Source: Escherichia phage vB_EcoM-RPN226. From it: a stretch of 64,000 nt of DNA. The position numbers were made by a program, and so were the translations under genes. The notes under the pieces are model-generated. The model saw only the letters and a list, made by a program, of their open reading frames with translations. It was not told where the DNA came from and searched no databases. Location of the stretch: sequence record OL770073.2; one strand, 5' to 3'. Position 1 is the first letter of the stretch; each line of letters starts with the position of its first letter. Positions 30,923-60,942 of this stretch are shown piece by piece.

Positions 30923-31377
30923 TGGAATTTAAAGACTTTTCAACGGGTCTTTATGTAGCAGCTAAGTTTTCAGAATTAACACTTGATGCGCTGGAAGAAC
31001 TCCAGCGCTCTTTACGTGTTCCTAATCCAGTTCCTAGAGAAAAAATTCATTCGACCATATGTTATTCAAGAGTAAATGTTCCATATGTTCCATCGAGTGG
31101 AAGTTTTGAAGTAGCTTCTTCTGGACATTTAGAAGTATGGAAAACACAAGATGGATCGACTCTTGTAATTGTACTAGATTCTGAATATCTGCGCTGTCGA
31201 CACATGTATGCGCGAGCACTAGGTGCTACACATGATTTTGATGATTACACACCGCATATAACATTGTCTTATAATGTTGGACCCTTATCATTTAGCGGTG
31301 ATGTACAAATTCCGGTCGTATTAGATCGTGAATACAAAGAGCCTCTTAAACTCGATTGGGCAGACGATTTAAAATAA
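30922..31377 (+). CDS. 57B: gp57B
   Basis: 151 aa downstream of 57A. Confidence 0.75.
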
Positions 31378-31388
31378 TTTCACAAAGT

Positions 31389-31420
31389 TGTTTACACGTT
31401 GATGAGGTAGTGATACTATT
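31389..31420 (+). promoter_or_regulatory. T4-type early promoter (GTTTAC -35, TGATACTAT -10) with perfect 9-bp dyad flanking the -10
   Basis: TTTCACAAAGTTGTTTACACGTTGATGAGGTAGTGATACTATTACCTCATC; dyad GATGAGGTA/TACCTCATC. Confidence 0.65.
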
Positions 31421-31449
31421 ACCTCATCAAAATTAATTAGGAAAATAAA

Positions 31450-31722
31450 ATGAAAACTTTCAAAGAATTTATCAATGAAGCTGCTTTTAACGAAAAAGTA
31501 AAAATTAGCAAAGCTGTCAAGACTATGATTGATAACATCAATTACCTATATGGTATTGATTTAACTGACTATGTAACAGTTGGTAACAAACGTAACTATT
31601 TCGTGTTTGACATCTCTGAACTTGACCAGAATCAAATTAACAACATTGAGCGTTTTGCTAATGATAAGGGTCTTCGACACGAGCCTGGTGGCTATAAAAA
31701 ATACGCAATTTATTTAAAATGA
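31450..31722 (+). CDS. internal-protein-like head protein with capsid targeting sequence (IPI locus)
   Basis: N-terminus MKTFKEFINEA matches the T4 IP leader MKTYQEFIAE with gp21 cleavage site after I-N-E; sits next to 57B where T4 carries ipI. Confidence 0.65.
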   Translation: MKTFKEFINEAAFNEKVKISKAVKTMIDNINYLYGIDLTDYVTVGNKRNYFVFDISELDQNQINNIERFANDKGLRHEPGGYKKYAIYLK

Positions 31723-31753
31723 GTTTACTTTTAGATGGGGTAGTGATACTATT
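31723..31753 (+). promoter_or_regulatory. T4-type early promoter with imperfect dyad over the -10
   Basis: GTTTAC...GATGGGGTAGTGATACTATTACCCTATC; near-duplicate of promoter at 31389. Confidence 0.6.
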
Positions 31754-31780
31754 ACCCTATCAACTACAGAGGAGAATAAA

Positions 31781-31963
31781 ATGAAACGTTGTGAATTAAT
31801 TCGAAATGTTGCTATTGCAATTTCTGCTTCCGCTTTTAGTTTTTCAATGTTTGTTGGATTTATATGCGGATTATTAACTACAGCAGAAAATGTGTTTTCA
31901 CTTGTAGTAGCATTTTTAATTGGTTTAATCGCTATCGTTATGGATAAAATTTCTAAAGGTTAA
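31781..31963 (+). CDS. small hydrophobic (membrane) protein
   Basis: 60 aa ORF with two hydrophobic helices, preceded by GAGGAG RBS. Confidence 0.55.
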   Translation: MKRCELIRNVAIAISASAFSFSMFVGFICGLLTTAENVFSLVVAFLIGLIAIVMDKISKG

Positions 31964-31965
31964 TA

Positions 31966-32253
31966 ATGATTCTTTATGCGAAAGTATCGTCCGTTGAAAA
32001 TGGATATAAATATGATCAAGATGCGGCTAAAGCCTTGATTGATGATTATGGCATTTTAACATGTTTTGAAGTTGAAAAGGTTTACATTGACCGTTCATCT
32101 TCTCAAGTTAAATTAGTAAAGGAAGACCGTAAATTTAATACAGTAAATTTTGATTTCTTTATTGAAACAGAAAAAGGTCCTCTTGAATATGATATTTTCA
32201 AGAATCCTTTGGGTCTTGAATGCATCGTAAATATGTATTATCATAAATGGTAA
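31966..32253 (+). CDS. hypothetical protein
   Basis: 95 aa ORF immediately after previous stop. Confidence 0.5.
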   Translation: MILYAKVSSVENGYKYDQDAAKALIDDYGILTCFEVEKVYIDRSSSQVKLVKEDRKFNTVNFDFFIETEKGPLEYDIFKNPLGLECIVNMYYHKW

Positions 32254-32350
32254 ATATGCTTTAAGAATTATTTGTTATTATTAACTCATATCGCACTGAT
32301 TAATACCCTCTATCATCAAGGGTTCTTGCTTGAGAGCCTTTGTTAATAAT

Positions 32351-32423
32351 TGGGAATTAGCCAAGTTGGTAAGGCATAGCACTTTGACTGCTAGATGCAA
32401 AGGTTCGAGTCCTTTATTCCCAG
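32351..32423 (+). tRNA. tRNA-Gln (anticodon UUG)
   Basis: Manual fold: acceptor TGGGAAT/ATTCCCA, anticodon loop CTTTGAC, T-arm AAAGG-TTCGAGT-CCTTT. Confidence 0.85.
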
Positions 32424-59209: not shown

Positions 59210-59676
59210 ATTATGACAGAATATACCCGTGTTGCTTTGTGAATGGCCCTGGATGCAGGACCGTTCTTTTCGTCACAGGTTGTTTGCATAAATGCGAAGG
59301 GTGTTATAATAAATCAACATGGAATGCTAGAAATGGCGTTCCATTCACTGGTGAAACACTAGAACAATTAATTGAATGTTTGAATAATGATTATATAGAA
59401 GGATTAACTATAACTGGAGGAGACCCTCTCTATCCTGATAACCGAGATGTTGTTCATTGCATCGTTCAAACAGTAAAAAATCTTTATCCGAATAAAAGCA
59501 TTTGGTTGTGGACAGGATATAAGTTTGAAGATATTAAACAACTAGAAATGCTTAAATATGTTGATGTTATTATTGATGGGAAGTATGAGAAAAATCTTCC
59601 GACCAAAAAGCTGTGGCGAGGATCAGATAATCAGCGACTTTGGTCAAATACCGACGGGGTGTGGAAACATGATTAA
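59206..59676 (+). CDS. nrdG: anaerobic RNR activating protein (radical SAM)
   Basis: Start at MNYDRIYP gives 156 aa as T4 NrdG; Cys cluster CLHKCEGCYN. Confidence 0.85.
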   Translation: MNYDRIYPCCFVNGPGCRTVLFVTGCLHKCEGCYNKSTWNARNGVPFTGETLEQLIECLNNDYIEGLTITGGDPLYPDNRDVVHCIVQTVKNLYPNKSIWLWTGYKFEDIKQLEMLKYVDVIIDGKYEKNLPTKKLWRGSDNQRLWSNTDGVWKHD

Positions 59677-59790
59677 ATTGAATTATATTATGGACACTAT
59701 AAATGATATGATTTTTCATTTTGGTCCAGAATTTTATTCGCAGTATAGTTTAGTGCTTATCAATGCTTGGTTAATCAATTAAGGGTAAAT

Positions 59791-60006
59791 ATGTATAAAT
59801 TTCGTAAAGGTTTAGCTGATTTTCTTACAACTGTAACGTTCTTTTTGTTTATGGCAGTTGGAGCTATTTTCCTTATTCCTTTTATTGCTATATTTTTCGT
59901 GATTAGCTTAATTTCTCCAGAAAAAGGCTTATCTTCTAGCGAGTTTAATGAGCGTCTGGATAAAATTACTAACAAACTGAATGCTGTTCTTGATAAAAAG
60001 GCTTAA
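59791..60006 (+). CDS. small membrane protein
   Basis: ATG at 59791; single long hydrophobic helix. Confidence 0.5.
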   Translation: MYKFRKGLADFLTTVTFFLFMAVGAIFLIPFIAIFFVISLISPEKGLSSSEFNERLDKITNKLNAVLDKKA

Positions 60007-60008
60007 TT

Positions 60009-60320
60009 ATGATTAGTTTTGAGCAGTACGTGGTAGAGAGTTGGAAGGGTTTTGATATGTTCGGTAATGACTATTATTTCTATGAATGTAGTCTAAATCC
60101 TAGTTTTTGGGCTGGACGAGAACGAGAACTTGAAGAAATTAATAACCGTGCTGAATTGTTAGGTGAATTACCTACGGTTTATTTTACCTTTGATGCATCT
60201 GGATTTGTTATCCAGGTTTATTTTCCTGAAGAAAATTCTGGCGATGATTCTGTTAACCCGCCATACTGGGCTTATCAAGGAATTATTTCTCGTGGAACAA
60301 AACTCGAACTTAAAGAATAA
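60009..60320 (+). CDS. hypothetical protein
   Basis: 103 aa ORF. Confidence 0.5.
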   Translation: MISFEQYVVESWKGFDMFGNDYYFYECSLNPSFWAGRERELEEINNRAELLGELPTVYFTFDASGFVIQVYFPEENSGDDSVNPPYWAYQGIISRGTKLELKE

Positions 60321-60615
60321 GATTGAAGTCTATGGAATTCCAGATGAAGTAGGTCGTTGTCCTGGATGTCAATCAGTTACAAAACTTCTAAAGGAGCTCA
60401 ATGCTCCTTTTACTTTCTATAAAGTTCTTACAAATAATGGTAAGATTGAGTATGATCGTCCACTGATTGTATCTCTTGCTAAACGAGCTGGATTCACATC
60501 TCTTAACATTCGTTATCCAGTCATTTTCATCAATGATTCTAGACAAAAGAACATTAAACACTTCAAAGAAACTCTCATTTCACTTGGATATGATAGAGAT
60601 ATCATAGAAGACTAA
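60287..60615 (+). CDS. glutaredoxin-like redoxin (NrdH-like), probable GTG start
   Basis: KIEVYGIPDEVGRCPGCQSV with CxxC active site; no in-frame ATG, candidate GTG at 60287 overlapping upstream gene. Confidence 0.5.
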
Positions 60616-60618
60616 GAT

Positions 60619-60640
60619 GGGCCCTCTGGGCCTTTCTTTC
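60619..60640 (+). terminator. terminator-like hairpin
   Basis: GGCCCTCTGGGCC followed by TTTCTTTC. Confidence 0.5.
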
Positions 60641-60713
60641 TCACATTCTGTATATTACCATTCTAAGATATCGTTCCCTTCTTATCATTCCCTAAAATAA
60701 TTTTCACAAAGTT

Positions 60714-60744
60714 GTTTACAAGAAGTTTAAACTGTGGTATTATT
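60714..60744 (+). promoter_or_regulatory. T4-type early promoter
   Basis: TTTTCACAAAGTTGTTTACA...TGTGGTATTAT; upstream block identical to that at 31380. Confidence 0.6.
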
Positions 60745-60942
60745 AACATATGAATTGCCTTTGAGGATTTGATATGGTTGATAAAGAGATTAAAAAGGAT
60801 CAGTATTATCGTGTTAACGGACATATTGTTATTGTTACAGCAGTAGATGATCTAGATGTTCATTATACTGTACTTAAATGGAATAAACAGATGATTTGCG
60901 ATCGTGCTGTATTTAGTTCAGTTGCTAAGGAAATTAAACTCC

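Follow-up and report, generated by a model that had tools for sequence, protein, structure and literature searches.

Stem-loops written into the early promoters of a T4-like Escherichia phage are probably hairpins of read-through RNA

The early promoters of phage T4 comprise an UP element, a −35 element, a TGn motif and a −10 element with further conserved positions (PMC2988021), and their GTTTAC motif lies at −36 to −31 (PMC1524935). Units in which such an early promoter is combined with a stem-loop, called PeSLs, were defined in phages RB49 and phi1 by Arbiol et al. in 2010, who also showed recombination between them (PMC2839356). Their five subclasses differ in where the stem-loop lies, and among the locations are one between −35 and −10 and one overlapping −10; PeSL termination or attenuation and the formation of mini-circles have been established experimentally for RB49/phi1 only (PMC2839356). 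As related by Arbiol et al., Repoila et al. (1994) described analogous elements, with a T4 early promoter and variable AT-rich stem-loops, at two T-even internal-protein loci (PMC2839356), and Comeau et al. (2014) described PeSLs in the T4/PST pair with the pattern TTTACW-N17-TAYWAT (PMC4122927). Here we analyse a family of repeated cassettes of this kind in a stretch of 64,000 nucleotides from Escherichia phage vB_EcoM-RPN226 (sequence record OL770073.2), the whole of which is referred to as the window. An earlier note on this DNA had seen PeSL-like early promoters in it, some with dyad symmetry across the −10 element; the sites do match the published T4 early-promoter consensus, and the literature already contains both early promoters and PeSLs. 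Our reading, which we consider probable, is that the sites are T4-type early promoters or PeSL cassettes in which the dyads are the stem-loop part, forming RNA hairpins of read-through transcripts only and written into positions that the polymerase does not read.

A second device bears on this reading, namely the hairpin that sequesters a ribosome-binding site. At the T4 genes e, soc, 49, I-TevI and segB, and at mobE of Aeh1, the ribosome-binding site is freed by a promoter that lies inside such a hairpin. According to the review by Edgell et al., every known case is a late gene.

Judged by its database matches, the window is a segment of a Tequatrovirus (T4-like) genome. A 20-kb query from the region matched 1158 phage records, nearly all of them Tequatrovirus or other T4-like phages, with the best 94–96% identical. 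By BLAST, window positions 25677–63996 are collinear with 79.7 to 38.7 kb of T4 (AF158101) on the opposite strand, so that the plus strand from about 28000 corresponds to the T4 early strand; a switch in the sign of the GC skew at about 28 kb agrees with this.

Both strands of the window were scanned with a scoring matrix built from the sites themselves. Twelve matches were found on the plus strand, from 31390 to 60714 (each site is named by the position of the G of its GTTTAC), and none on the minus strand. GTTTAC-N18-TAnnnT is present in all twelve and TGn in eleven, and every promoter is co-oriented with early genes, 19–38 nt upstream of a Shine-Dalgarno (SD) sequence and start codon. A generic sigma-70 scan showed no enrichment (65 found against 73 expected, and 83 against 83), and since the T4 matrix does separate the sites, the signal is specific to the T4 type. 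Alignment to T4 places nine of the sites at the expected positions with 93–99% identity, where their orthologues precede ipI, trna.4, e.8, e.7, regB, mobD.5, nrdC.10, nrdC.8 and 55.6. The remaining three (35639, 38901 and 39014) lie in segments absent from T4, and nothing else of substance separates the set from T4 early promoters: GTTTAC at −36 to −31, the 17-bp spacer, TGn and TAnnnT are all shared, as are the AT-richness farther upstream and some additional conserved bases up to about +6. The regB early promoter is documented (PMC3014915, section 11), and the mobD.5 promoter corresponds to a primer-extension stop (PMC1702504). On these sequence criteria, the repeats are sigma-70-dependent, strong early promoters of the T4 type.

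The sub-blocks repeated among the window promoters are also repeated in T4. The identical core that the earlier note had reported at three sites proved to be a 22-nt sequence, TGGTACTATACAACTATCAACT, found exactly three times (at 34765, 47558 and 48997; chance expectation 0), and the sequence that it had seen near 31380 and 60700 is indeed common to 31378 and 60702 (TTTCACAAAGTTGTTTACA). Its larger claim, of a block shared by at least eleven plus-strand sites, stands for the promoter core, which all twelve have in common, and not for the upstream block TTTCACAAA (TTTTCACAAA), which occurs at only four of the twelve. On the plus strand, TTTTCACAAAR-NN-GTTTACA is found at 31377, 34731, 47524 and 60701 only. 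Nor do most of the promoters follow a strong hairpin terminator, as had been supposed. A terminator-like hairpin with a T-run stands directly upstream at 45840 and 47537 only, and farther upstream at 34744 (138 nt) and 60714 (81 nt), with none at the other eight; the four terminators lie on the plus strand at 34583, 45807, 47488 and 60619.

Each window promoter was then folded over the span −36 to about +60. Eight of the twelve show pairing of the spacer with sequence downstream of it, with a duplex energy of −11 kcal/mol or stronger, and in six of these the duplex is −15 kcal/mol or stronger. In the predicted folds, one arm occupies the spacer (about −30 to −14) and the other lies just after the −10 element or farther down the 5′ untranslated region. 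Since the left arm is upstream of the transcription start, the helix can form only in read-through RNA and not in the promoter's own RNA. We see two classes. In class A (31390, 31723 and 35082) the right arm spans about −6 to +5 and leaves the SD free, and in class B (38901, 41824 and 48976, with weaker cases at 45840 and 34744) the SD of the next gene forms the right arm. Counting either a helix or an upstream terminator, there is a stem-loop in or beside every promoter except 35639 and 39014. The promoters and their hairpins are as follows.

31390–31431, plus strand: early promoter of an internal-protein gene (T4 ipI position), with −35 at 31390–31395, −10 TACTAT at 31414–31419 and a predicted transcription start site (TSS) at about 31426.
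31399–31409 with 31420–31430, plus strand: hairpin of 31390, class A (no SD), 11 bp perfect (TTGATGAGGTA/TACCTCATCAA), 10-nt loop holding GTGATACTAT, duplex −19.6 kcal/mol; identical in T4 at 73.94 kb, with different arms at the same locus in relatives.
31723–31762, plus strand: early promoter of trna.4, with −35 at 31723–31728 directly after a stop codon and −10 at 31747–31752.
31734–31742 with 31753–31761, plus strand: hairpin of 31723, class A (GATGGGGTA/TACCCTATC), 8 of 9 paired with one G·U, −17.6 kcal/mol; the T4 copy has the same right arm, and ATAGGGT instead as its left arm.
34744–34824, plus strand: early promoter of e.8 (true start about 34818), with −10 at 34768–34773; the 22-nt identical core is present, as is TTTTCACAAA (at 34731), and the T4 orthologue lies at 70.70 kb; the weaker pairing is of spacer 34750–34769 with the SD/AUG region 34804–34823, −13.0 kcal/mol.
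35082–35120, plus strand: early promoter directly after the e.8 stop codon, with −10 TATTAT at 35106–35111; the gene downstream of it (35137–35667) differs from T4 e.7.
35088–35097 with 35110–35119, plus strand: hairpin of 35082, class A (ATAGGCTCAT/ATGAGCCTAT), 10 bp, −17.5 kcal/mol; the dyad is the same in T4.
35639–35675, plus strand: early promoter of e.6, in the 3′ end of the preceding open reading frame (ORF), without a straddling hairpin (−4.9 kcal/mol).
38901–38955, plus strand: early promoter in a segment absent from T4 (no T4 match), with −10 at 38925–38930.
38907–38916 with 38945–38954, plus strand: hairpin of 38901, class B (TTCCTCCAAG/CTTGGAGGAA), right arm the SD of a mini-ORF (38958–39032), −20.3 kcal/mol.
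39014–39050, plus strand: early promoter of an ipIII-like gene (39074–39670), without a straddling hairpin (−4.3 kcal/mol).
41824–41880, plus strand: regB early promoter, with −10 TATAAT at 41848–41853, 99% identical to T4 62822–62723.
41830–41844 with 41862–41876, plus strand: hairpin of 41824, class B (TTTTCCTCTTGACTG/CAGTTAAGAGGAGAA), right arm the regB SD including GGAG, −23.1 kcal/mol.
45807–45893, plus strand: terminator (hairpin with T-run, 45807–45824) and mobD.5 early promoter, with −35 at 45840 and −10 at 45864–45869 (T4 orthologue at 58.78 kb); the spacer/SD pairing is weak, −11.4 kcal/mol.
47488–47579, plus strand: terminator (hairpin 47488–47507) and nrdC.10 early promoter, with −35 at 47537, TTTTCACAAA as well as the 22-nt identical core, and no straddling hairpin (−4.2 kcal/mol); its T4 orthologue lies at 55.39 kb.
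48976–49033, plus strand: nrdC.8 early promoter, with −10 at 49000–49005; the true start codon is at 49034.
48987–48999 with 49017–49029, plus strand: hairpin of 48976, class B (TGTTCCTCTGTGG/CTATGGAGGAACA), right arm the SD, −20.5 kcal/mol.
60619–60750, plus strand: terminator-like hairpin (60619–60633) and early promoter of 55.6, with −35 at 60714, −10 TATTAT at 60738–60743 and TTTCACAAAGTTGTTTACA (T4 orthologue at 41.71 kb), without a straddling hairpin (−6.4 kcal/mol).

The dyads noticed earlier at 31400 and 35088 are therefore real, and longer than had been claimed (11 and 10 bp, both perfect); the one at 31731 is present with eight of nine positions paired, its mismatch being a G·T. In the T4 reference (AF158101, at about record position 70346) the dyad of the e.7 promoter contains an N in its left arm (ATAGGCTNAT), where the window and relatives have C.

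In shuffled sequences, a paired run of at least 9 bp has a probability of about 0.001 per promoter, and two such promoters were obtained in 1 of 5000 shuffles. The spacer and downstream sequences of the same promoter pair with a mean of −11.9 kcal/mol, compared to −8.0 kcal/mol when promoters are mismatched (permutation p = 0.00015). We also assembled a wider set of 115 non-redundant promoter-like sequences of the T4 type from IMG/VR contigs, using a pattern that leaves both arms free, together with the regB, e.8, 57B and nrdC.8 loci. Among the 115 promoters, an ungapped helix score of at least 8 is reached by 24% of own pairs and 2.2% of mismatched pairs, and a score of at least 10 by 12% and 0.2%, respectively. 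T4 itself has duplexes of −14 kcal/mol or stronger in 13 of 32 predicted early promoters, including those before dexA, dmd, alc, ndd.5 and cd.2. These figures bear on the possibility that the complementarity is a by-product without function, arising where pyrimidine-rich spacers happen to face purine-rich SDs, or from templated (quasi-palindrome) mutation. Mismatched spacer/5′-untranslated-region pairs do average −8 and reach −18 kcal/mol, which amounts to a generic complementarity of anti-SD and SD sequence. However, own pairs far exceed mismatched ones, covariation affects the part of the stem outside the SD, the class A helices contain no SD, and the pattern persists across clades with 68–77% protein identity, so we consider a functionless origin highly improbable.

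Conservation was assessed in relatives from IMG/VR, of which there were about 10–36 per locus, so the covariation rests on few clades. Both perfect dyads (31390 and 35082) are identical in T4, and the dyads, whose conservation in relatives the earlier note had put up for checking, are kept. Downstream of e.8, the relatives have ACAGGCTCAT/ATGAGCCTGT (ACAGG/CCTGT) and ATGGGCTCAT/ATGAGCCCAT, which are double compensatory changes; single G·U variants occur in some, and in one contig the promoter is an unrelated one whose arms, TGAGGAC/GTCCTCA, are placed in the same way. At the site downstream of 57B, different phages have between them at least six arm pairs that straddle the −10 element and are unrelated to one another, for example GGTAGGACTA/TAGTCCTACC, GGTCTATAG/CTATAGACC, GTGTAGG/CCTACAC and TAGTGT/ACACTA. 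For the regB helix, covariation was judged by eye from folds of the individual sequences. Three clades (RegB identity 100, 77 and 68%) retain this helix, with a constant SD-proximal part and with distal arms CTTGACTG/CAGTTAAG, CTAGTTG/CAACTAG and TGTAAG/CTTACA. At nrdC.8 the helix is kept with other arms, as an SD-masking class B hairpin in two clades and as a TSS-proximal class A hairpin in the third (GGTCTAT../..ATAGACC). Comparison of these sequences suggests that hairpins of classes A and B can replace each other at one orthologous promoter.

A related pattern is seen between paralogous early promoters of T4, at record positions 57990 (in the gap between mobD.2 and mobD.2a) and 20612 (before dmd). 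Both have 12-bp straddling hairpins, which differ from each other by compensatory changes (GTTGACAAGATT/AATCTTGTCAAC versus GCTGACAAGACT/AGTCTTGTCGGT).

Variation of this kind speaks to the proposal, raised in the earlier note, that the dyads are operator-like; they would then be bound by a dimeric protein, from phage or host, that turns these particular promoters off or on. Such a protein would suit a symmetry centred on the −10 element, and the mechanism of early-promoter shut-off is incompletely understood (PMC3014915). Yet the arms are unrelated between sites (for example GATGAGGTA, ATAGGCTCAT, GTGTAGGAGC and TGGTAGAAGAC), they show compensatory change rather than conservation at one locus, and their spacing ranges from 8 to more than 30 nt, such that no single protein could read them all. 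Because the arms differ between sites and covary within sites, a common operator protein is excluded, and we give operators of any sort very little credence.

The non-Watson–Crick positions of the helices indicate in which nucleic acid they are paired. In 61 helix clusters, these positions on the plus strand comprise 16 G·U and 2 A·C (p = 0.0013 against an even share, 0.5; p = 0.007 against the 58% share of G·U in chance helices formed from mismatched arms). This excess of G·U over A·C points to RNA structure on the plus strand and not to a symmetrical feature of double-stranded DNA. The RNA energies of the plus strand are better than those of the minus strand at 31723, 41824, 45840 and 48976.

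We nevertheless considered whether the dyads act in DNA, either as cruciforms or hairpins that are recombination hot spots (for example as targets of junction-resolving enzymes) and so drive gene exchange, or by tuning promoter melting. The relevant observations come from the junctions between homologous and exchanged DNA. In the one pairwise comparison made, of the window with T4, 5 of 22 homology breakpoints fall within −40 to +90 of a promoter, where 1.0 would be expected (p = 0.003), and 17 lie elsewhere. The internal-protein gene (31450–31722) has been exchanged between 31471 and 31743, the latter position being in the loop of the 31723 hairpin; the gene at the e.7 position has been exchanged between 35139 and 35694, which is 55 nt downstream of 35639; and the ipIII junction has its breakpoint at 39062. 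Among relatives in IMG/VR we see a chimeric promoter with a 31723-type left arm (AAATAGGGTA) and a 31390-type right arm (TACCTCATC), in which complementarity is broken and the joint is the shared −10 core GTGATACTAT, as well as one promoter copy with a slipped duplication of gatactattacctcatcaa. By their sequences, they seem to have arisen through recombination or slippage within that core. Alike promoters would thus offer short patches of homology at which genes can be swapped, as the earlier note had envisaged. That proposal has partial support, from the promoter-proximal breakpoints and the chimeric promoters. The other breakpoints coincide with a duplicated terminator (34058/34581), with homing-endonuclease genes or with no visible signal, and cassette exchange is therefore one contributor among several.

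Several of these observations would suit action in DNA, namely the breakpoint at 31743 in a hairpin loop, the chimeric joints in the GTGATACTAT core, the mapping of RB49 mini-circle crossovers to the loop within the stem-loop (PMC2839356), and a note in the T4 record that 14 nt are inverted within an early promoter, one that has a straddling hairpin. However, no part of the cassette is more conserved, and so more homologous, than the loop, which accounts equally well for crossovers there. Loops of 10–16 nt make extrusion costly, a strand-specific G·U excess is not predicted by double-stranded DNA structure, and the right arms of class B lie 15–35 nt away and coincide with the SD. For these reasons the cruciforms suggested in the earlier note are, like its operators, not supported, and a role of the dyads as DNA structures seems improbable to us.

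The T4 annotation just mentioned (AF158101, record positions 133300–133313) reads 'inverted complement of previously reported sequence; corrects the early promoter Pe133295'. The promoter concerned (G at 133331) has a straddling hairpin GGTAGAGCT/AGCTCTACC of −18.7 kcal/mol, and the corrected 14-nt segment may lie in or near its loop.

Compared to the published PeSLs, the window cassettes are alike in combining a promoter with a stem-loop, in being repeated through variable regions and, at some junctions, in bounding gene replacements; the two internal-protein loci of Repoila et al. are those of 31390/31723 and of 39014 in the window. They differ in that the stems of the T4/PST pair lie just upstream of the promoter (according to the 2014 figure legend), while the strong stems of the window mostly straddle the −10 element and the start. 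They also differ in what the stem may do. Its published role is that of a terminator or attenuator, and in the window the stems lack T-tracts and several end in an SD.

That published role leads to another explanation, in which the embedded hairpins are terminators or attenuators of upstream transcription, their target being RNA polymerase and neither translation nor decay. It is the proposal of Arbiol et al. for PeSL stem-loops, and the stem-loop of PeSL211/210 from RB49/phi1 cut expression of a downstream lacZ as strongly as rrnB T1 did (PMC2839356). The arrangement in the window would fit this, since strong embedded helices are found exactly in the six promoters that begin within 0–12 nt of a preceding stop codon and lack a terminator of their own upstream (6/6 versus 0/6, a post hoc comparison), and embedded helices are weak or absent where an upstream terminator is present (four promoters). 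The pattern fits the idea that the stem-loop of the cassette is folded into the promoter where space is short. On the other hand, the trade-off between upstream and embedded hairpins is not significant in a larger set, and termination after the −10 element would leave the promoter open to occlusion. Among 42 non-redundant straddling helices, not one has a T-tract after it (at least 5 T in the next 8 nt; mean 1.8 T), whereas the true terminators of the window have T-runs. The straddling helices are therefore not canonical intrinsic terminators. They share with T4 intrinsic terminators, which often have UUCG or GAAA loops and of which genuine examples stand upstream of four of the promoters, the character of stable, plus-strand, intergenic stem-loops, but their loops are 10–16 nt or longer. 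We regard termination or attenuation of upstream transcription by these hairpins as unlikely.

Returning to hairpins of read-through RNA, the two classes would have different consequences. The predicted probability that the SD is unpaired, compared between read-through RNA and the primary transcript for 34744, 38901, 41824 and 48976, is 0.00–0.01 in the former and 0.21–0.73 in the latter (0.01 and 0.34 at 34744, 0.00 and 0.21 at 38901, 0.00 and 0.73 at 48976). In the long transcript, pairing of the SD is predicted to be partial at 45840 and absent at 31390, 31723 and 35082. Read-through transcripts of class B genes would accordingly be poorly translated, with promoter-proximal transcripts left open. 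As RegB requires a single-stranded GGAG, the class B helix would also shield long transcripts from RegB. At several sites, the left arm begins 7–14 nt after the upstream stop codon, so that a terminating ribosome could partly open the helix, with translational coupling as an alternative outcome. The class A hairpin would end at about +5, and might have an intercistronic role in the RNA, for instance in protecting the upstream message from decay, in its processing or in attenuation.

Class B resembles the hairpins that sequester ribosome-binding sites in T4. In both, the promoter lies inside the hairpin, its own transcripts lack the 5′ arm, and the SD is paired in longer transcripts. They differ in that the known examples use late (gp55) or middle promoters and those of the window are early promoters of early genes, and in that only three to five of the twelve window sites involve the SD. 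Cases of SD masking at early promoters are not listed in two T4 reviews of 2010, to which this comparison extends; the regB section of the review by Uzan and Miller describes the early promoter and self-cleavage at GGAG, and no hairpin (PMC3014915). SD masking by early-promoter spacers may thus be an undescribed variant of a known T4 device.

A broader statement can be offered tentatively. It is possible, if rather doubtful, that a helix forming in read-through RNA only has its 5′ arm in the spacer of about 40% of T4-type early promoters, with the GGAG-containing SD of the next gene as the 3′ arm in a subset. If this is true, the arrangement would be a counterpart, for early genes, of the late promoters within hairpins at e, soc, 49 and I-TevI. 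Translation of genes such as regB, nrdC.8, dexA, alc and ndd.5, and their exposure to RegB, would be confined to transcripts begun at their own early promoters, and their expression would stop when early promoters are shut off even though longer transcripts still cross the gene. This could help to explain why RegB cuts early transcripts and not later ones with the same GGAG.

Several points weigh against hairpins of read-through RNA. The sequences themselves establish what the promoters are, their orthology to T4, and that the helices exist, are conserved and covary. Both the existence of the read-through RNA and any effect of the hairpins on it are things we infer, and transcription across these promoters is assumed from the general pattern of transcription in T4. 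Four window promoters (35639, 39014, 47537 and 60714) show no such helix in their folds, with energies weaker than −6.5 kcal/mol. The trade-off between upstream and embedded hairpins amounts to a trend only among 129 promoters (2/19 versus 35/110, p = 0.10). Automatic alignment of the regB leaders with RNAalifold gave only two compensatory pairs, an undercount that results from a shift in register of the right arms between clades. The G·U count and the covariation are not fully independent events, as the relatives share a phylogeny. Finally, the role given to class A is a guess, the SD being left free, and the division of the nrdC.8 relatives between classes A and B means that SD masking may not be the selected property.

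The genes around these promoters follow the T4 order. On the plus strand, genes 4, 2, 3, 1, 57A and 57B are followed by the internal-protein gene, trna.4, eight tRNAs and segB, then by e.8 to e, ipIII, vs.x, regB, tk, rI, mobD.x, nrdC.x, 49, nrdD with its intron, and 55.x to 55. A scan of the window against Rfam at gathering thresholds returned only the eight tRNAs and the nrdD group I intron, and placed the promoter hairpins in no family. The intron (RF00028, 103 bits) is followed by an ORF of 258 amino acids at the I-TevII position, in the region 56038–57085, and an ORF of 276 amino acids (58379–59209) with weak DNA similarity to T4 segB occupies the mobC position of T4. Relative to T4, the window is without ipII–denV, trna.3, e.2, mobD to mobD.2a and nrdC.4 (at 39687–39710, 31954–31966, 37630–37659, 46466–46485 and 52020–52036, respectively), the ipII–denV junction being at a hairpin at 39673–39690.

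Two segments are extra compared to T4. Near-identical terminator hairpins (AGCCCC..GAAAGGTTGGGGCT with a T-run) at 34026–34049 and 34583–34606 surround a 520-bp insert that holds an ORF of 157 amino acids (34103–34576) absent from T4; as the sequence reads, exchange here is bounded by a duplicated terminator and not by promoters. The second segment, at 38603–39073 between gene e and the ipIII-like gene, contains an ORF of 98 amino acids (38603–38899), promoter 38901 with its SD-masking hairpin, a mini-ORF of 24 amino acids (38958–39032), and promoter 39014, which overlaps the end of the mini-ORF. From its content, this segment looks like a decayed cassette.

In short, the first observation on this DNA is mostly borne out, and its reading of the repeats as early promoters or PeSLs is correct and already published; as the same sequences are present in T4 and PeSL shuffling is in the literature, that finding as first given adds little. 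SD masking by early-promoter spacers is a possible, modest extension. With the dyads as RNA helices whose arms covary and occupy the positions left unread in a very compact promoter, T4-like phages would overlay transcriptional and post-transcriptional signals in intergenic spaces of 50–60 nt. Should the SD-masking subset work as described, it would supply a simple, testable rule to tell which transcripts of an early gene undergo translation and which of them RegB can attack. The annotation and engineering of T4-like phages would be concerned as well, since a change in the spacer would alter RNA structure too.

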